Assembly (NCBI GenBank): GCA_010405405.1
Contig: MU004234.1
Coordinates: 602,993 to 666,992, forward strand
Source: Microthyrium microscopicum
Lineage: Eukaryota
Direction of reading: 5' to 3'
Length of the DNA stretch: 64,000 nucleotides
The position numbers and the translations under genes were made by a program. The notes under the pieces were generated by a model. That model was not told the origin of the DNA and made no database searches. It saw nothing but the letters and a program-made list of their open reading frames with translations. Positions 46,513-58,500 of this stretch are shown here, in pieces (positions within the stretch are counted from its first letter, which is position 1; every line of letters starts with the position of its first letter).

Positions 46513-47884
46513 TCATCCAAGGAATGCGGCGAACAATAGCGACAACAAGCCCACGAACGATAGGCTAGGAACCATCGAAGAAACCTCGCTCTTCTTGGTA
46601 GAACTTGTCGAGGGTGAGTTGCTGGAGCTACTCGATGAATTTCCTGTACCAGCATGGAAGTCACTGGCATTTCCAGCTGTTGGCGTAGGTACTGCGCTGG
46701 TCACATTCGTCGCTTGCTTGGCCGAGACTGCGCTGGCATTGACGGCCGAACCTGAAAGAGGATCCCGATACCAGTTGGCCGGAGGATCTCCTAAGCACTC
46801 GCCGACCGTTGCTGTGGTATATCCATATTTCTTGAGATTGGTTATCATGAATGGCACTAGCTGTGTCACTGTTTGCTGATGGATGTCGTGGGATAGAACG
46901 ATGTAAGAGCTGGTAGCCGGTTTGTTAGAGGAAATAGGGCCGAGGAAGTTATTTTGCGCTGCGTTGTAGTCACCTTGCCAGTCAAGGGTGTCAAGGTCTT
47001 GGTTGACCTGTTCTGTGTCAGCATCTATCTTGATTGTCACTGACTCAAACTTACGACATGATAGCCCAGTGTTTTGAGGTCAGAGAGAACATCCGGGTTG
47101 GTGTAAGTATATGGGGGCCTCAGATATGTCGGGAAGAACCCAAGGATGTTCGTGAGAGCAACTTCGTTCTTGGTAATCTGGTCGATTCGCTGAGCCGATG
47201 TCATTTGAGTAAGATCCTGATGAGCCCAGGTATGACTGCCAATCTGATGCCCGTCGGCGATCATTCTTTGGAGGATTGGCGAATATCCGCTTGATGAAAG
47301 ATCTATTTCACCCTTACCACCATTGATAGCCACCACGAAAAAGGTTGCCTTTACTCCCGCCGCTTTGAGAGTGTCGAGTATCTGGGTGGTGTATAAATAT
47401 GGACCGTCATCGAAAGTCAACGCTACCTTCCCAGGCGTGGTGCAATGCGTAATAACAACTCCATATGGGACGTTTCCAAACAGCGGCCGAGGGTCAGCTT
47501 TCGTTGATTTGCCCGGTGGTACTACATTTGCATCGCAAGCCGGTCCCCATTGCCATAAACAGGCCGGAGCGTCGCAGTAATATCCTCCCGTACCACATAG
47601 TCCCTTAAGCAAGGTAAGCAGGGAGATATACCAGTCACATTGAGGAGACTTACATCTTGGGAACAACACTGGCTAGCAGGGCAAACAGCTCCTCCTCCTG
47701 ATGGACCACATTTTTGACCTTGTCGTTTTACCAGTTCTCCTTGTCCAGGCGTCCGCCACCGTGCAAAAGGGCTCGATGAATCAGCATCTCCAGGAAATCG
47801 AGCGCCTGTAAACTCGAGCTCGAAACCGCGAACTTGTGACAGTAATGTCAACCCAAATGCCAGTATGGAAGTGGCTGAAGGCAT
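46513..47884 (-). CDS. Chitin/polysaccharide deacetylase (CE4) with hevein-like CBM18 and probable GPI anchor
   Basis: Signal peptide; CGPSGGGAVCPASQCCSQD|GLCGTGGYYC (intron 47604-47653); TFDDGP, HTWAHQDL, YLRPPY, (intron 47008-47054) DTLDW, VLSHD; Ser-rich stalk and hydrophobic tail. Confidence 0.92.
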
Positions 47885-49035
47885 ACTGAAAAGAGAAGGT
47901 GTTCAGTTCGAAACGTGTCGAATGTACGACAACGCCACAATATTTTTGGTGTACCAGAGGCACACTTCAAGTCCAATGTGTAAGAAACGTGCGTGGTTCA
48001 ACGACTACAATGTTTTGATATTCCTCCTTAGCGAGCGTGTTGTACCAGAATTTTCGGCGACCAAGCTTTGATCCAAAGAAGTGTTAAGAAGAAAAGTCCA
48101 GTACCTGAATATGTCATCAGCAGCGCCAGCGAAGGACTTGGATGAAAGGTAGTTAGCAGAATGTAGTAGATACAAGTTCTTGGCGGAGGGAGATATCCTA
48201 CGCCTTTTAGCTAAAGACTGCCACAGTGGGAATAAACATTTTGGGGCCAGGCATAACCAGTATCCCTAAAATTTGATCCAAAGCGAAAGGAGTTGGGTCG
48301 GCCCACTTGATGCACGAGCCGGATCGCCATCCTGTCTATCGACATTATCCTGCGCCTCTCTACAACTGGCGATGCAGGAGCCAATGAAGGAGTTGATGAG
48401 ACAGCCTTAAGGCTCTGGCGCCCAGTGTCGTGATTTTGGCGGCGTTCAGCGAATAGCAAAAGTCCCAGCATCCCTGAAAGTTCCTGGCCCCGTCCTAGAC
48501 TTTAGTACGCACAGACAGACCTGACGATGCTTTAAAGGATGATATACAACAGGGTTGTCCAGATCCCGAGTTCCTTCGATGCTGAACATATCTCCATATA
48601 GATGATACGGATCCTACATGAGACGAATTATCCGCAGTCTCTGCAGGAGCAATTTTGCAGGTCAAATACTTGTAGAGTCTTGTTCAATGCGACTGATCCA
48701 AAGAAAGCGAAATGATCAAAGATCCAGGGTGATGAAGTTGGTTCAAAATGTTAGTGCTGAGGCCAGAAGTGAGCCACCAGATGCATGGCAGTGGACCCGT
48801 GTTTGCAGGCTTCCAACCACAAGCAGTTACCTCAGCCTTGGGGCAGGGATTTCGGGGCCAAAAGGGGAATTTGGCGGCTCTTTAGCTCAAGACAAGCTTT
48901 CTGGGAGGATCAGGTCTGGGCTGAGACCCCGACCAATCCTGACAACTCCTTTTCACACGATGTTGAATCTCACGGTGAGTCGACTGCGGCGTTGTGGTGT
49001 TCAGAAATTCTTCTGAGCGAGGTCGACTTGGAATT

Positions 49036-49790
49036 GGAGGACAAGTTTCCACACACCCTACGTCGCGGCACCCCAAGATTCCACACACCCCCCAAGGGTC
49101 GCTCAGACCCCGTCACTAAGGACGCCCCAACCGTCGCCAAAATCAAAGTCCTTAGTGGTAGCTGCACCTAAACCAATGACTTGAAATCCGACGATTCTGG
49201 GAGTTGTTACCTTGTTAAAGCGCGTTCTAAACGCGTCGAGCCTGTTCAGAAAATCAATTAAAATGGCCAAAATGTTCGTTTGAAGACGTGCCTTAAAGCG
49301 ATAAAGACAAAGATAAAAGACAAAGATAAAAGACAAAGATAAGGCTAAAGAAGAGGCCTTTTAACGGTATTAAAGAAGACGCGCGCTCGTTCTAGACGTG
49401 AATTTAAGAAAGAATCGAAAGGTAAAGTAAGGAAGAAGAACGAATTAAAGGATCGCGAGTTAAGGATAACACGCCAAGCCTTAATAATTTTGTAGCCTCT
49501 TATTGGCTAGCCATTATCGATAAGATTCGATAAGATAAGATTAAGCTTCGTTGAGTCAAATATCTAAAGACCAAAAACCAAAATCAAAAACAGATTTTCA
49601 GGAAGGATTCAAAGAGACCCATGAGCATTAGCCGTCACCAACGGGAGCCATTCCTAAAAAGGGTTGATTTCTTTGCGCTAAGGAGACGCCATACAAAGGT
49701 GAAAAGACCATTTTTGGGGCCGAGCCACCCTTGGGGGGTGCGCGGAAGCAAAGGGTGCCACTGGGTAGGGTGTGTGAAAACTTCTCCTCC
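49036..49790. mobile_element. Degenerate inverted-repeat element with RIP-like AT-rich core (probable transposon relic)
   Basis: Arms 49036-49111 and 49716-49790 are inverted copies (about 80% identical by hand count). Core has a 13-nt tandem repeat (aaaagacaaagat x3) and appears TpA-rich and CpA/TpG-poor. No transposase or target-site duplication seen. Confidence 0.5.
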
Positions 49791-50526
49791 TTGGAATTGC
49801 GGCACTCCAAAGTCTGCGCACCCTTTCCTCACAACGGTGACAATGATAACGATCCCTGTCCCACCAAGATAAACCTTATCTTGAATCTTTATGGCGGAGA
49901 AGGTCGTTTTTGTACTTGAAAGTTGAAATTCAGTTTCTGTGATCTTGACCTTGTCCAACATGCAAAAGCCATTTCATGCGGCCTGCGGGTAGGTTTTCTT
50001 CTGCCGCAACACCAAGGATTTTCTTTTCTTGCACGTTCTCGAATCCTGAGTCCTGACGCGATATTAGCCTCAAAATCGACATCTTCCCTGCGCGAGTCTC
50101 GACCACCTCGATCCTGTAGCATCTGATTTTCGGCAATAAAATCAAAAACTGGTATAAAATTGAGCATTTGGTGTAGTTCAGAGATTGGTTGGAGGAGGGT
50201 CATGTATAAAAATAGAACTTTCTGCAAGAAGCTTTTACCCAAGCTTTTCTGACCCTGTCGATCCCTGAATCCTAAATTTCCCATCCTTGGGCCCTGGGGC
50301 GAGAAATGATTGCTGTATCAGCCTCATGAGAAATGCCATTCAACGGCGTTTTCCATTATTGGGGGCCAGGTGCATTTTCGGGTAATCGGCTACGATTTGA
50401 ACTTCAAATTCCTCATTTCGAATGTCCTCTTAACAAACGAGGATTGTCCATGTCGCCAAAATCCCTACAGTCGCATTGAAACAATCAATATTCATGGCAG
50501 GATGAGTCTTTTCCATGGAAAACCGT

Positions 50527-52959
50527 TCAAGACGGCACAGTAAAAATCCTCAACGATCCATCTTCACTGGCCACAGCCATGAGGCCACTCGCCTGCTCGC
50601 CGCTCTGTGGCTGCCATGCAATTCTACTGATCCCTTTATGCGGACAAAGTTGCATTTGCATAGGTCGAACATTGACCTTCTCCAGATCTTCCATAGAAAC
50701 CTCGGCGAGAAGCAACTCTCCACTCTCCAAACCGATGGCCAAAGAGAGATGATTCTGCGGCAAACTTGGTGCAAACGCAACCGCAGTCGCAGGCTGCGAA
50801 ACAGTAATCGTGCTCTTGAGCTGCCACTCTGTGCCAATAAGTTGCCAAATCTTGACGCTCTTGTCGCGGCCAGCCGTTGCGAATATACGGCCAGCTTCGA
50901 GGGGGGCCCATGAGCAGTCAAGGATCATGCGCGAATGGCCTTTCGCTGTTGTTGTCGTAAATTTGCCATCTATAAGTTCGAAAATGGACCAGATGCGATC
51001 TCTGCCCACGGATAGGAGGTACCCGCCGTCGGGTGACCATTGAAGAGATGTGACGGTTAGGGAGTGCGCGCGCAATGGTTCTGAGAAGTCTTTCCAGTCT
51101 TTCGTGTCGTAGACACGGATTACGGCGTGATCAATGGAGCTTGCTCGACATGCTGTTGCCATGAGTGTACCATCTTGAGTTACAGCGACGGCGGAGATCT
51201 CGTAGCCATGGCCGTAGACCTTGTGGATTTCTGGCCAGAGAAGGTGACGGGCAAGTTGATCCTCGACAGGCGGATGGTCGATGTCGAGGGCGGATATGTT
51301 GACAATGAATGACGGATCGTCAGTGGTTGGCTCCTCAGTGTCTCCATTTGTGTTACTCTCCTTGTCATCAACAGCTTGAATGGCTTTATTCGACAAGCCC
51401 AGAACAGGAATGTTCGCTGCGTCAGGTAGGTCCGTATTTTCCTGTGATATATCGCATAGTTTGGATAGAAGACTTGCGACTACTGCAGGTTCCTGGAATA
51501 CTCGGAGTGGTTTCTCGTCCGCGCCAGACACAAACTGGGTGTCTGATATGACGCCAATACAGTTCAAGTCATATCCGTGGATTTGTGGGCGAGCGAATTC
51601 ATGCCAGGATGGTGTCTGCTTCCACTTTGAGTGTAGCCTTGACGTCTGATCTGAGCTAGTTGAAAGCAAGTAACCGCCGCTCTTCGACCATGCTATATCA
51701 GTGACTGATCGAACATGACCACCGCATCCGATTTGCGGTACCCATATGTGTTCCGATTCTTGCTGCCACAGCCTCCAACCTCCGGTTCTCCCTAGACTTG
51801 CTACCGCGTTTCCTTTAGGCGACCACAGTCCGATCCAGAATCCGCCCGTACTTCCAGTCGCAGTTGTAGAGCCTTTCTGAGCGCTTATCTCTCCCAATCG
51901 AGACACACATACCCATATGCCAGAGTTTGCGTCTGCTTCCCATATGGCAAGAGAATTATCCGCTGATGCGCTAAGTAGTTGTAGTTTGCCATCATGGTGA
52001 TGCCACTTATTTGAGTATATCCAGTCGTCATGTCCAAGCAATAATGCCTCAAATGTAATCGATGCTCTCTCATCCCCTATTTCAAACCGATGTGCTTTCG
52101 TTGATACTGATTTGCCCATCAATCCCAGTGATGGATCATCCACTGCTTTACTTGATGGCAGCTCCTCGCCCTTGTGTATTCTCCATAATCGAATGAACTT
52201 GTCCTGACTCGCTGATGCTAAAAGCAAGTCTGAAGAAGTATCCGTAGTTTCTCGCACGAATGAAAGAGACCGAATCCATCCAGCATGTCCTGTCAAGGTG
52301 GCTATCGGTCCGAATTTTCCAGTTGTTTGAGTCACGTAGATATGAATCGCCGCGTTTGATCCAGCAACCGCCAATATCTTATGTTTCTTGTCCAGGTCAT
52401 GCGCTGAAATTGCCAACGGCATAATCTTCACCTTGATCGTTTCCACCAATTCGACCTCTTCATTAATTCCATCCGTAGCGAAGTGTGACAGATCCCAAAC
52501 CTTGATAGTCGAATCGGCAGAGGCAGATATCAGTGTCTGAGAATCAGACAATATCTCTAGAGCCGTCACTGAAGCATCATGCTGCGCAACAACAGCACTC
52601 TCATAAGACTTGCCCTCTGATTCTCCTAGTGGTACTCTCCACGCTCTTATGCTCTTATCCACAGATCCACTGAACAGCAGTACTTCTTGGTTACCAGATC
52701 GCTGATAAAACTTTACGGCATTTGCCGCATCAGTATGCCCATTTAAGAGCGCGTACACGCCCTTGTACGCCGAGTCCTGCACCCGTAAGCTTCTCAATTT
52801 CACATCTCTTGATCCTAGGCTTACCAAAGGTCTCCAAAGCGCAATACTATTGCCTGCGCCATAAGCGAGACATCCACCATCATTATTAGCCCAGTCGGCG
52901 GCTGAAGGATGTCGGTTGCCGCCGATGCTGATATATTCCAGCTCAGCGCGATCGCCCAT
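50527..52959 (-). CDS. ELP2: Elongator complex subunit 2 (double WD40 propeller)
   Basis: YISIGGNRHP..ADW, LTGHAGWIRSL, LLASASQDKFIRLWRI, FEALLLGHDDWI, WHEFARPQIHGYDLNC, FVSGADEK.LRVF, A..PVLGLSNKA, LWPEIHKVYGHGYEI. Probable in-frame intron 52777-52824. Confidence 0.95.
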   Translation of the reverse strand: MGDRAELEYISIGGNRHPSAADWANNDGGCLAYGAGNSIALWRPLVSLGSRDVKLRSLRVQDSAYKGVYALLNGHTDAANAVKFYQRSGNQEVLLFSGSVDKSIRAWRVPLGESEGKSYESAVVAQHDASVTALEILSDSQTLISASADSTIKVWDLSHFATDGINEEVELVETIKVKIMPLAISAHDLDKKHKILAVAGSNAAIHIYVTQTTGKFGPIATLTGHAGWIRSLSFVRETTDTSSDLLLASASQDKFIRLWRIHKGEELPSSKAVDDPSLGLMGKSVSTKAHRFEIGDERASITFEALLLGHDDWIYSNKWHHHDGKLQLLSASADNSLAIWEADANSGIWVCVSRLGEISAQKGSTTATGSTGGFWIGLWSPKGNAVASLGRTGGWRLWQQESEHIWVPQIGCGGHVRSVTDIAWSKSGGYLLSTSSDQTSRLHSKWKQTPSWHEFARPQIHGYDLNCIGVISDTQFVSGADEKPLRVFQEPAVVASLLSKLCDISQENTDLPDAANIPVLGLSNKAIQAVDDKESNTNGDTEEPTTDDPSFIVNISALDIDHPPVEDQLARHLLWPEIHKVYGHGYEISAVAVTQDGTLMATACRASSIDHAVIRVYDTKDWKDFSEPLRAHSLTVTSLQWSPDGGYLLSVGRDRIWSIFELIDGKFTTTTAKGHSRMILDCSWAPLEAGRIFATAGRDKSVKIWQLIGTEWQLKSTITVSQPATAVAFAPSLPQNHLSLAIGLESGELLLAEVSMEDLEKVNVRPMQMQLCPHKGISRIAWQPQSGEQASGLMAVASEDGSLRIFTVPS

Positions 52960-53286
52960 GATGAGGAAGCTTCAAGCAGCCATTTTCGTAAATGCACTGT
53001 GCGCAAAGAATGTGGGTGGATTGGTAGTGGCTTGAAAATCAGGCTGGAATATTGAAGAAAATTTGGTGACGCACCAATCAAGCCCCACCAGAGAGAGGTT
53101 AACAATTTTACCGGATGTGAATTTGACCAGACCACTCTTGCCGGAAACTTATCGAAGATTTTTATATTTTCTTTGCAAAGTCAAAGCCTCCCATTTGCGA
53201 CCTCAGTACTGTCAGCGTCACGACGGTCAAGTGTTTGAAGCATCTCCACAAGCTCGCTCGAGTCGCTCTCTCTCACTTAGAGCCAA

Positions 53287-53715
53287 ATGGCATCGAACAC
53301 AATACCAAGCTTCCCAATCACAGTAGAGTTCACGTAAGACTTTTCCAAACTGCCCAATACTTTTCTAACTATGGTACAGAGGCGGCCTAGAACTCCTCTT
53401 CTCCAACCAACGAAAGCACAATATACAAGTACCAGAACAAGACTCATCAGGCGCAAAGACCAACATCTCATGGCTGGTGGACCATCTCTGCAACAATGTC
53501 ATGAAAGATAGTAGGAAAGACATGTTTGTTCTTCACAATTCAGTGTATGTCTAATTCATTTCATTTCTTCATGTTCTGGAAGCTAATAGATGGCAAGACG
53601 GCCGGGTATCTTGGTACTCATAAATGATGCTGATTGGGAGCTGGAGGGCGAAAGTAACTATGAGTTACAGAAGGGTGATAGCATATTGTTTGTTTCGACG
53701 CTTCATGGCGGATGA
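53287..53715 (+). CDS. URM1: Ubiquitin-related modifier 1 (sulfur carrier for tRNA 2-thiolation); not in ORF track
   Basis: Introns 53334-53379 and 53545-53597 give [29 protein letters not shown]...[36 protein letters not shown], the canonical Urm1 signature. Confidence 0.96.
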
Positions 53716-53947
53716 TTGCTGAATGCTGCTTCATACCAACCGTTCTTCTCTTGCAGAGCATATCTTGCCCTCCAGCGTAGCAGCTTTGATGAAGCCCTGG
53801 ACAAATTTCCACTAAAGGAGCGGGCTGTTCGCATGATACAAAAGACCAAAGCCTAAGTGTTCTTAAAGAGTTCATATCTCGCTGTCAGTATGACGCGCGC
53901 GAAGCTCCTCGCAATCCAGTGATCCCTCTGACGGCGCAATGAACAAC

Positions 53948-54980
53948 TCAGAGATAATCCTTCTTTCTACTTGTGCGTGTATATTGATTCAAGTGCCACT
54001 CCACATCGCCGTCCTTGTTCTCGAGAGTACCCGCACGGATTTCGAATAAGCGCTATCAAGTCAGCATCAACAATCTCACTACCAACATGGATAGACATAC
54101 CATTGTCATTCGTGGACCGACTTCTGCAAGCTCGATCGATTCGTGGCCTGTACGTACGAAAACTACAAAGATGTCAGTCGTAAAGATTACGCATGGTTCG
54201 ACCTTAATACCATGATGCCGCACTTCTATGCTATCTTCAATGTTCTTGAATGTGACAACTCGGTTGCCTACTTTTGTTCCGTACTCTCGTGGCGGGAAGA
54301 GGTGCTTGAGAATTGTGACGGCGCGTAGACCAAGTTTTGTGGTGAAACCCTCGAATATGAGATGTGGATATGACTCTGACACAGTTCCGCGAGCCGAATT
54401 CGGGATGTCAGCGCGCAAGACGACGTTATGTAGCGAGAAGGAAGCAGTGGGCCCATGAGGCATATGTGAGATAGTCAACGCGGTGGGATTGCCTCGATGT
54501 TCGTGTAGTAGTATGAGATCACTAAGATCGGCAGCTTTGGCAGAAGCAACGAGATTTGGTAGGATCAAATTTCCTCGATTCAATCGGATGGCGGTAGGTA
54601 GGAGTAGTCGGATTTCTTTAGCAAAGCTAGCCAGTCGGGAACTAGGATCGCGGGACGTGGTGACGAGACATCGTGGGTCGCGGATACCGCTGAGAGCAGC
54701 ATATTCGTCGTCAAGGGCGAGCTCTTCTTCCACAGTACGGTCCGCTCTTGACTCGTCGAATTTGTAGTTCTCTCTCAGGGATTTGTCATTTGCGATGGCA
54801 GGATCAAGCTGTTTCCCACTGGCAAGAGAAGCCTTGAGCTTGGATCGCTTGTCTGCAATTTCGGCATCGCGGAGGACGAGCGCTCTGCGGTAGAGGTAGT
54901 CTCGACGTTCTCGAGTTTGTCTTTTCTACACTGTGTCAGTTGTGCCTGCCGTGTAAGGCGAATAGGTTACATACAATCAT
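53948..54980 (-). CDS. IMP4: U3 snoRNP protein Imp4 (Brix domain)
   Basis: [87 protein letters not shown]. Introns 54926-54974, 54163-54210, 54053-54100. Confidence 0.95.
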
Positions 54981-55292
54981 GTTTGCGGTTGATTTTGCTA
55001 GAGCCAAACGTTGTCGAAAATGTTCGATGTGGTAAAGCGTAAGAAAATAATTTGTGGTTAACTCCGGGTGGGGAAAGCTTGTAAATCCGAAAAAGCAGAC
55101 TCTGCAGTCTAACCCAACCACTCACAGGCCGAGATGCCACCACTACTCCACGCGTTCCTCCACCAGAACATGGTCTTTTTCTATGTACCAAATACCTCTC
55201 TCTATCAACATCGCATCACTACCCTGACCTCGCTTTGCTGCTACAGCTTGGCGCCTGTTCCTGTTAGCTCGATATAACAGCTTTCCAGCTTG

Positions 55293-55468
55293 GTAAGTCT
55301 GAGTCTTTTTGCCACAGCTTGCCAATTTTATCTTCAAGCTCCAGATCTGCGTCGTAGTCTTACTAACGCTTCTCGACCCAGAACGCCACAGGTTGAGACT
55401 TCTACATGCCGGCGCATCACTTGCTACCAGCTTCTATACCTTGTCAGCTCCGGCCACCAAATACTTAA
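55293..55468 (+). promoter_or_regulatory. Predicted UPF1 5'-UTR intron (55293-55381) followed by a 20-codon uORF (55406-55468)
   Basis: GTAAGT donor, TACTAAC branch at 55361-55367, CAG at 55379-55381; ATG CCG GCG ... ACT TAA ends 63 nt before the UPF1 ATG. Confidence 0.55.
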
Positions 55469-55531
55469 ACCTCTATACCCCACGAACACCACCGTATCTC
55501 GGTACGACTATACACTTCTTCCGATTCCGCC

Positions 55532-58500
55532 ATGGAAGGCGCCTTTACCCATCTGGGTAACCATCTGGTCTCCAACTCGGCTTCGACTATTAACGCCGAG
55601 GACGATGAGAGTATACTAGACGGGAACTTCGGACGGCTGCCTAGCGCCGCTCGTCGACGACGACAAGATGACGAAGAGACTGATTACCTTGACGACGATG
55701 ACATTGAAAGCATGGCTAGCATGGCTGTAGATGGAACAAATGGAAAAGCACCCGTTGCAGCCGAAGAGGAGGTTGATTTGCCTGCTCATGCTTGCGCGTA
55801 AGATATATGGTACATGTGTCACTTCAAGCAAGCTAAAAGAAATATACAGATACTGCGGAATCCATAATCACCAGAGCGTCGTTCAATGCGCGGTATGCCA
55901 CAAATGGTTCTGCAGCGGACGAGGTAATACTTCGTCTACGCATATTGTCAATCATTTGGTCCGAGCCCGCCACAAGGAAATCATTCTCCATCCTCAGTCA
56001 CCATTAGGCGAAACCATACTCGAATGTTATCAGTGCGGTGTCAAGAACGTCTTTCTCTTAGGCTTTATCCCAGCAAAGGTTGAAAGCATTGTGGTTCTTC
56101 TGTGCCGTCAGCCTTGTGCTGCTGCACCATCGTCCAAAGATATGCAATGGGATACCGCAAAGTGGCAACCACTAATCGAGGACCGTTCCCTTCTTTCTTG
56201 GCTGGTTCCACCACCTTCCGAACAGGAACAGCTGCGCGCTCGTCACTTAAGCCCACAAACTATCGTCAAGCTTGAGGAATTGTGGAAAGAAAACCCAAGT
56301 GCTAGCCTGGCTGATCTGGAAAAGGGTGTGGGTGTCGACGACGATCCTGCGCCAGTCCTACTCCGTTACGATGATGCCTACCAGTATCAGAACGTCTTTG
56401 GCCCCCTCGTGAAGATTGAGGCCGACTATGATCGAAAATTGAAGGAATCGCAATCTCAGGACGGTCTCGTTGTCCGTTGGGATCTGGGTCTCAATAACAA
56501 GCATTTGGCAAGTTTCGTGCTTCCTAAGCTGGAGCTCGGGGATGTCAAACTGGCTGTGGGCGACGAAATGCGTATCCGATACAATGGCGAATTACGAACC
56601 CCATGGGAAGGTGTTGGCTATGTCATCAAAATCCCAAACAACCAGTCTGACGAGGTCACTATTGAATTGAGAACTAAGGGAGATCACAAATCAGTGCCCA
56701 CCGAATGCACCATCAACTTCACAGCAGACTATGTTTGGAAGGCCACATCTTTCGACCGCATGCAACACGCCATGAAGACTTTTGCTGTAGACGAGCTGAG
56801 TGTTTCGGGATATATCTTCCATCGTCTCCTTGGTCACGAAGTTGCCGCAGCTCCGATGAAGACACAGCTTCCTCGAAAATTCAGCGCTCCAAATTTGCCC
56901 GAACTCAATGGCAGCCAGATTGCTGCTGTTCAATCCGTTCTGACTCGGCCGTTGAGTTTGATTCAAGGTCCGCCAGGCACAGGCAAGACTGTGACGTCCG
57001 CTACGATCATCTACCACCTTGCTAAGAATAGTGGTGGACAGGTTCTAGTTTGCGCGCCTTCCAATGTCGCCGTGGATCAACTTTGCGAACGAATTCATAG
57101 AACTGGACTGAAGGTGGTTCGTGTTACCGCCAAGTCTCGAGAGGATGTTGAGTCTCCGGTTCGCTTCTTGTCTCTTCATGAGCAAGTTCGTCTCAATGAC
57201 ACCAACACTGAGCTTGTCAAACTTAACCAGCTCAAGTCCGAGCTTGGAGAATTGTCCAGCCAGGACGAGAAAAAATTCAAGCAGTTGACCCGATCTGCCG
57301 AACGCGAAATTCTCACCAATGCAGACGTTATCTGCTGCACTTGTGTTGGTGCCGGAGATCCACGTCTCTCCAAGTTCAAGTTTCGAACTGTCCTTATTGA
57401 CGAGTCGACACAATCCGCCGAACCCGAGTGTCTGATTCCGCTGGTTTTGGGCTGCAAGCAATTGGTCCTTGTCGGAGATCATCAGCAACTTGGTCCTGTT
57501 ATCATGAACAAGAAGGCAGCAAAGGCAGGACTCAGCACCTCGCTATTTGAGCGTCTCGTCCTACTCGGAACCCCTCCTATTCGTCTACAAGTCCAATATC
57601 GTATGCATCCATGTCTTTCAGAATTCCCATCCAATATGTTCTACGATGGATCGCTTCAAAACGGTGTGACTGCAAGCCAACGACTTCGTCGCGACATAGA
57701 TTTTCCATGGCCAGTGGTGGACAACCCAATGATGTTCTGGTCTAATCTTGGCAACGAGGAAATCTCCGCCTCCGGAACATCTTATCTCAACCGTACTGAG
57801 GCTTCCAACGTAGAGAAGATTGTTACTCGTTTCTTCAAAGCTGGCGTTAAGCCTGAAGACATTGGCATCATCACTCCGTATGAAGGTCAACGCAGCTATA
57901 TTGTCAGCTCTATGCAGACCACTGGCACCTTCAAAAAGGAGTTGTACAAGGAGATTGAAGTCGCATCTGTCGACGCTTTCCAGGGTCGTGAGAAAGACTT
58001 TATCGTGCTCTCTTGTGTTCGTTCCAACGATCATCAGGGCATCGGTTTCTTGAGCGACCCTCGTCGTTTGAACGTGGCTTTGACTCGTGCCAAATACGGC
58101 ATTGTCATCTTGGGAAATCCCAAGGTTCTGTCTAAGCACCCTATGTGGCATTGGCTTCTTTCTCATTTCAAGGAACGTAGCTCCCTAGTGGAAGGACCAT
58201 TGTCCAACCTTCAAGTCTCTCTTCTGCAGTTCAGTCGCCCTAAGACCAGCTTCCGTGGACCTCAGCGTTATCAGATGGGCTATCAGAGCCAAAATGGCAA
58301 CATGATGCCCGGTCGTCCAACCCGCGGTCCACGATCCGAGTACACTGACAATAGCTCTGTCGTTGGTGGATTCTCCGATGATGTTTCGACGGTGCACTCC
58401 TCTACCGTAGGAGGTGTTGGCCTTCCATCTTCAATGCCACCAATGTTTGCCAGCTTCACTGAGCAATGGCCAACTCTTCCTGGCCGCAAAGGTCGTCACA

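Follow-up and report, generated by a model that had tools for sequence, protein, structure and literature searches.

Introduction

In prokaryotes, operons link the gene for a ubiquitin-like sulfur carrier to that for a tRNA thiolase, as in TtuB-TtuA of Thermus and SAMP2-NcsA of archaea. Here, we analyze a eukaryotic arrangement that resembles these operons in the physical linkage of an s2U34 sulfur-carrier gene, URM1, to another gene of wobble-uridine modification, ELP2. It is found in a 64,000-nucleotide stretch of Microthyrium microscopicum DNA (contig MU004234.1, positions 602,993 to 666,992; hereafter the window, always meant at its full length), and is compared with the corresponding loci of related fungi. 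Whereas the prokaryotic operons are co-directional, polycistronic and confined to the thiolation arm, ELP2 and URM1 are two monocistronic genes on opposite strands, and the partner of the sulfur carrier comes from the Elongator arm.

The modified nucleotide mcm5s2U34 of the tRNAs for Lys, Gln and Glu is the joint product of Elongator and of the Urm1/Uba4/Ncs2/Ncs6 pathway. The cm5/mcm5 side chain of U34 is made by Elongator, in which ELP2 serves as the WD40 scaffold subunit, and URM1 is the sulfur carrier for the 2-thiolation of this uridine. The two pathways are independent and both are needed, as loss of either alone leads to translational and proteostasis defects. To our knowledge, how the two arms are balanced in cells has not been settled.

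Divergent gene pairs are a further point of comparison. GAL1-GAL10 of yeast has a bidirectional promoter with a mapped shared upstream activating sequence and demonstrated co-induction. Like ELP2-URM1, it consists of an intergenic region between two genes of one pathway, with the difference that a control function of this region is putative for ELP2-URM1.

Conserved divergent pairs of functionally linked genes are already known from fungi, and ELP2-URM1 adds one pair to them. Described examples are H2A/H2B, H3/H4, SNZ1/SNO1, RAD16/RAD7 and ribosomal-protein pairs (Dávila López et al., 2010, PMC2871058). In the text and six supplements of this source, ELP2 occurs only in unrelated pairs and URM1 nowhere. 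In the known pairs, as in ELP2-URM1, two non-homologous genes with roles in one process diverge from a short spacer, an order retained across fungal classes. Unlike the listed pairs, the ELP2 and URM1 products form no complex, and two separate enzymatic arms converge on one nucleotide. No report of ELP2-URM1 adjacency was found in the full-text literature, subscription journals being outside the search.

ELP2 and URM1 in the window

The coordinates of all features are collected in Table 1. The preliminary description of the window, made from the sequence alone, had placed ELP2 and a three-exon URM1 head to head on a 327-bp spacer. Both start codons and the spacer arithmetic proved right, and the two identities were borne out by matches to solved structures and Pfam families.

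By its full-length similarity to characterised Elp2 with two WD40 propellers, the minus-strand gene is ELP2. In a phmmer search against solved structures, residues 8-807 aligned with yeast Elp2 (4xfv/5m2n, E ~6e-161), mouse and human Elp2 were also matched (E ~1e-100), and Pfam recognized 7 WD40 stretches. Judged from orthology only, the protein would be the Elongator subunit needed for (n)cm5U34. The closest named protein is a "WD40 repeat-like protein" of Microthyrium microscopicum (794 amino acids, 98% identity), and the next relatives, which are Dothideomycetes, are only 54-60% identical.

In order to examine splicing, we turned to public sequencing runs. The stretch is present in seven of them, and four were compared over positions 49000-56000. 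Run X5 carries the label "RNA?" only as a guess; we took it as RNA because in several genes its contigs leave out short GT..AG segments that the DNA run X4 reads straight through. The depths of the contigs are not usable to rank genes.

To the preliminary description, the transcript contigs add a 48-nt intron within the ELP2 frame. An X5 contig (record 10) covers 50067-52775 and 52824-53014, and its joint from 52775 to 52824 (marked "cut +1") is absent from X4. As the intron is in frame and free of stop codons, the open reading frame gives 810 amino acids when read unspliced. Splicing shortens the product to 794, which is also how long the named Microthyrium protein is. Many related loci have an intron at this position too (after ...ALW.PL).

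The three-exon URM1 is expressed and spliced as modelled. A single X5 contig covers 53148-53333, 53380-53544 and 53598-54052, and both joints are of the GT..AG type and absent from X4, in agreement with a gene of three exons. Pfam PF09138 has a gathering cut-off of 21.8, which is exceeded by exon 2 with 35.2 bits (E 1.6e-8) and by exon 3 with 64.9 bits (E 8.9e-18). For exon 2, Chaetomium Urm1 (6yuc) is a further match, at E 4e-15. The spliced product has 109 amino acids and ends in ...FVSTLHGG (53692-53715, stop codon included), so that Gly-Gly directly precedes the stop codon. The C-terminal Gly-Gly of URM1 is its thiocarboxylation site. A Gly-Gly ending was found in 56 of the 81 sequences scanned (the window and the 80 related loci described below).

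Table 1. Positions of the features in the window
Feature	Position	Strand	Evidence or remark
ELP2 open frame	50527..52971	-	First ATG at 52959
ELP2 coding exon 2	50527..52776	-	Stop codon at 50527-50529; X5 contig covers 50067-52775
ELP2 intron (48 nt, in frame, GT..AG)	52777..52824	-	Spliced X5 contig
ELP2 coding exon 1	52825..52959	-	Starts with ATG at 52959
ATG-to-ATG spacer (327 bp), putative bidirectional promoter region	52960..53286		Sequence
Stretch outside both transcript contigs (at most 133 bp)	53015..53147		X5 ELP2 contig to 53014, URM1 contig from 53148
URM1 exon 1	53287..53333	+	ATG at 53287; joint 53333 to 53380
URM1 intron 1 (46 nt, GT..AG)	53334..53379	+	X5 joint, depth 352.5, one contig
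URM1 exon 2	53380..53544	+	Pfam Urm1 and PDB 6yuc matches
URM1 intron 2 (53 nt, GT..AG)	53545..53597	+	X5 joint
URM1 exon 3	53598..53715	+	Pfam Urm1 match; ends in ...HGG plus stop codon
Brix-domain (IMP4-like) gene, convergent with URM1	54056..54975	-	Pfam Brix E 4.8e-22

With their start codons this close, the genes are head to head in the usual sense (5' ends less than 1 kb apart). Since the two transcript contigs approach each other to within 133 bp, a single promoter region common to ELP2 and URM1 is very likely. A transcript may extend beyond the end of its contig, which is distinct from a mapped transcription start site, so that the true gap is the same or smaller. The arrangement had initially been called operon-like, which was loose wording: an operon is co-directional and polycistronic, and ELP2 and URM1 lie on opposite strands and have separate transcript contigs, that is, two separate mRNAs.

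In the DNA runs X6 and X7, the window organism is present at low depth, and a 7.5-kb contig (record 21) belongs to a different, more abundant fungus. Conserved portions of ELP2 and of URM1 exon 3 are matched in this contig with their order and spacing preserved, which gave the first indication that the window genome is not alone in having the arrangement.

The pair in related loci

We aligned 18 ELP2 proteins, scanned metagenome contigs with 10-kb flanks for relatives, and kept the best 80 of 255 confirmed ones, which are 41-60% identical to the window ELP2. URM1 was then sought by tblastn with the spliced URM1 of the window. It was present in 59 of these 80 loci, and in 58 of them directly upstream of ELP2, on the opposite strand and within 2 kb; in the remaining one (L053), it lies 6 kb upstream of ELP2 on the same strand. 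Pfam confirmed Urm1 in all 12 loci checked. URM1 was not found in 21 loci. In 10 of these, ELP2 is truncated or the sequence upstream of it is too short; the other 11 extend at least 1.5 kb upstream. A regular-expression scan for a DWEL...GG ending before a stop codon agreed with the absences.

Collapsing the loci at 95% ELP2 identity, dropping L070 for low coverage and adding the window left 64 lineages. The pair is present in 45 of them and absent in 10, and 9 are uninformative. Adjacency of ELP2 and URM1 is thus a feature of 45 of 55 informative lineages from at least four named Pezizomycotina classes, and the possibility that it is limited to close relatives, raised at the outset, did not hold. 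In Saccharomyces cerevisiae, ELP2 and URM1 are on different chromosomes.

For the placement of lineages, we used a FastTree phylogeny of query-anchored pseudo-protein alignments together with named ELP2 references, rooted on Pezizomycetes. In the Dothideomycetes, the pair is found in Pleosporales (with one locus 99% identical to Alternaria) and in loci near Glonium, Neodothiora and Capnodiales. It is also found in Leotiomycetes (Helotiales; one locus is 96% identical to Cadophora), in a clade sister to the Sordariomycete Neoarthrinium, in Eurotiomycetes (one locus is 86% identical to Thermoascus), and in two further clades near Lecanoromycete and Geoglossomycete references. Neither of the two informative Pezizomycete lineages has it. 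The pair is also missing from a Pseudogymnoascus-like clade (L030, L040), from a Capnodiales-like sub-clade (L051, L066, L053), from L076, and from L065 and L067, the nearest named relatives of which are Chaetothyriales.

On the ELP2 tree, the presence and absence of the pair call for at least five changes. With the Pezizomycetes, the most distant fungi sampled, as outgroup, these read as one gain and four losses. On this rooting, the tree traces the pair to a single origin after the Pezizomycetes had branched off, followed by retention in most sampled Dothideomycete, Leotiomycete, Sordariomycete and Eurotiomycete lineages and in further clades.

Viewed in isolation, the arrangement in the window would attract little attention. 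A short divergent spacer is ordinary in a compact genome such as this one, and by our estimate one pair of neighbours from the same pathway per genome is unremarkable. The estimate assumes roughly 25 pathway genes among ~10,000, which is a rough assumption. A single genome is expected, again as an estimate, to hold some same-pathway neighbours by chance, which would fit an adjacency confined to the window genome or its close relatives. The same arrangement in 58 of the 80 loci, at 41-60% ELP2 identity and across the classes listed above, refutes this account, and we regard it as hardly credible. It is the conservation of the pair that goes beyond chance, and not its adjacency in one genome.

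Retention of the pair and of its flanks

In order to judge the retention of the pair against its surroundings, we clustered the flanking open reading frames of the related loci into families and named them by Pfam. Many lineages share a block in which a 6-phosphofructo-2-kinase (6PF2K) gene is convergent with URM1, and ELP2 is followed by a convergent gene for a single-domain ABC ATPase and by a tRNA isopentenyltransferase (IPPT) gene. None of the 18 common flank families of the related loci was found anywhere in the window. Conversely, 13 other open reading frames of the window within ~12 kb of the pair had no match in any of the 80 loci (versus 59 loci with a match for URM1), and a Pfam search with 21 further open reading frames of the window detected no other tRNA-modification gene.

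Among 26 scored Dothideomycete lineages, 22 retain the pair, and 2 changes are counted at its junction. On the ELP2 side, the adjoining gene takes 14 states in 16 scored lineages (13 changes), and on the URM1 side, 15 states in 18 (15 changes). Locus pairs with 55-65% ELP2 identity were also compared: the URM1-ELP2 junction is present in both loci of a pair in 84% of cases, and a common gene family within 3 kb in 41% beyond ELP2 and 26% beyond URM1, with the caveat that such locus pairs are phylogenetically non-independent. A fair reading is that URM1-ELP2 is the sole junction surviving in every class, and that it clearly outlasts its neighbours where scrambling is intense.

The block as a whole raises the question of whether the pair has simply travelled as the core of an old syntenic segment (6PF2K > < URM1 | ELP2 > < ABC ATPase, IPPT >) without any constraint of its own. 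The block is indeed intact in all scored Eurotiomycete- and Lecanoromycete-like loci (F1 12/12, F3 11/11), and as the ABC ATPase-ELP2 adjacency is also present in Pezizomycetes, it is older than the URM1-ELP2 pair. In the Dothideomycetes and in the Sordariomycete-like clade, however, the block is gone and the pair remains, outliving every other block junction in two clades, and in the window the pair is all that is left of the whole block. We consider such hitch-hiking improbable.

No functional connection between the ABC ATPase gene and the pair is obvious. The Dothideomycetes and the Sordariomycete-like clade have lost this gene from beside ELP2. In five Dothideomycete loci (L007, L008, L016, L047, L062), families F11 (minus strand) and F18 (plus strand) and the gene for tyrosyl-DNA phosphodiesterase (Tdp1) lie upstream of the pair. 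Of these, F18 and Tdp1 also occur in a Pezizomycete locus, again upstream of ELP2, a hint that URM1 entered a gene order that already existed.

The shared spacer

First exons of the related loci were located heuristically. On this basis, ATG-to-ATG spacers in 34 non-redundant lineages range from 144 to 540 bp (median 249.5); the one outlier is L058, with 1582 bp. Word enrichment in the 34 spacers was tested against Markov shuffles. The only enriched word, AAGCGAG, occurs in 9 of 34 spacers, a number reached by 0 of 500 shuffles, and 7 of the 9 are from Helotiales. In the spacers of these Helotiales lineages (L012, L015, L021, L023, L024, L033 and L056), a conserved word TAAGCGAG(G) is present in constant orientation. 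Its distance from the URM1 ATG is 92-129 nt in six lineages and 360 nt in L023. The Helotiales word is a clade-level footprint and a candidate for a clade-specific promoter element, not for a pan-class one.

Selection for co-regulation or passive retention

The above observations can be brought together as follows. ELP2 and URM1 form an ancient divergent pair, and their two core promoters would lie within one very short intergenic region. A shared nucleosome-free promoter region could couple their transcription, coupled transcription could help to balance the two arms of mcm5s2U34 synthesis, and the pair might then be held together by selection against any break in the shared region. For this explanation, an ancient pair with transcriptional coupling of both arms backed by selection, we see about an even chance. 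The contrast between 2 and 13-15 changes in the Dothideomycetes and the shared narrow pathway favour selection.

Several results weigh against it. The change counts are approximate, as the FastTree phylogeny has many open forks, and four losses of the pair have occurred without obvious consequence. Measured against its neighbouring junctions, the pair has the higher retention in the Dothideomycetes but not in the other clade groups. In Leotiomycetes plus Sordariomycetes, the pair is present in 12 of 14 lineages with 1 change, and each flank also has 1 change; of the 13 Eurotiomycete- and Lecanoromycete-like lineages, 11 have the pair (1 change), and the flanks have 0 changes. Over the whole tree, the ABC ATPase gene beside ELP2 (present in 25/45) and 6PF2K beside URM1 (11/32) have 2 changes each, versus the 5 of the pair. 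By counted events, the pair is therefore no more stable than the local block outside the Dothideomycetes. Since neighbouring junctions are equally stable in the Leotiomycete-, Sordariomycete-, Eurotiomycete- and Lecanoromycete-like lineages, pair-specific selection is indicated only in the Dothideomycetes, and even there the contrast could reflect the small size of the spacer. Moreover, the word search in the 34 spacers found no cis-element common to the classes, and neither CCAAT (12/34 spacers versus 14.1 in the null) nor TATA-like words (TATAAA in 5/34 versus 4.6) were enriched in them. With flanks equally stable outside the Dothideomycetes and no cross-class motif, selection for co-regulation is plausible but unproven.

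Most of these points would be expected if retention were passive. A pair formed once by chance may have been kept as it is a tiny target for breakpoints and as breaks would damage the promoter of an important gene, the shared pathway being a coincidence and without regulatory benefit. The short spacers, the lack of a pan-class motif and the four apparently tolerated losses agree with this, and so does the great stability, in three clade groups, of the functionally unrelated junctions ABC ATPase-ELP2 and 6PF2K-URM1. The lineage with the longest spacer, L058, belongs to a clade that also contains a loss of the pair. On the other hand, the Dothideomycete contrast is above what a 2-5-fold difference in target size would predict (a rough estimate), and the partner of URM1 comes from the same narrow pathway, for which we estimate ~0.5% per random neighbour, a figure weakened by the many windows and pathways scanned. 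Passive retention thus has a considerable probability, somewhat short of even.

A more far-reaching version of the selective explanation is that the URM1-ELP2 unit might be a selected co-regulation module that has coupled both arms since the crown Pezizomycotina ancestor, and that, in Eurotiomycete- and Lecanoromycete-like lineages, it might also be the core of an anticodon-loop modification cluster with IPPT (MOD5-type) two genes away. We put this forward as tentative and on balance doubtful. Of 34 lineages scored for the IPPT gene (Pfam IPPT 6e-63, MOD5 type, i6A37), 13 have it at a distance of two genes from ELP2, with 7 changes on the tree. The IPPT gene is downstream of ELP2 in L013, L018, L019, L025, L029, L032, L042, L058, L062 and L077, and absent from the window. 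The lineages with IPPT have three anticodon-loop modification genes (URM1, ELP2 and IPPT) within four adjacent genes.

An arrangement retained in most filamentous ascomycetes amounts to a natural experiment, in which lineages with the pair can be set against the four sampled ones that have split it.

URM1 in public annotations

Some public ELP2 models are fused with a neighbour gene, namely those of Sarea resinae (P0111, 1151 amino acids), Aspergillus aculeatus (P0477, 1364 amino acids) and Pseudogymnoascus (P0319, 1389 amino acids). The P0111 and P0477 models carry 6PF2K Pfam domains. As URM1 stands between 6PF2K and ELP2 in loci with the block, these two models appear to be fused across URM1. 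This suggests that annotation often fails to call URM1, in which case gene-order surveys that rely on annotation would not see the pair, and small multi-exon genes such as URM1 are overlooked in this way. The absence of ELP2-URM1 from the text and supplements of PMC2871058 may have the same origin, that is, a tiny three-exon URM1 missed by gene callers.

Other features near the pair

Downstream of ELP2, the stretch 49037-49720 has a depth 2-8x that of its surroundings in the DNA run X4. It is represented by several variant contigs with many substitutions and small indels, and resembles a dispersed repeat. Rfam and tRNA scans of 47500-56000, this stretch included, gave no match.

On the other side of the pair, the Brix-domain gene that is convergent with URM1 had a match in 0 of the 80 related loci, and is thus not kept beside the pair in other lineages. 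In the window, the X5 contig of URM1 continues into this gene, so that the 3' ends of the two genes abut or overlap within ~340 bp (53716-54052).

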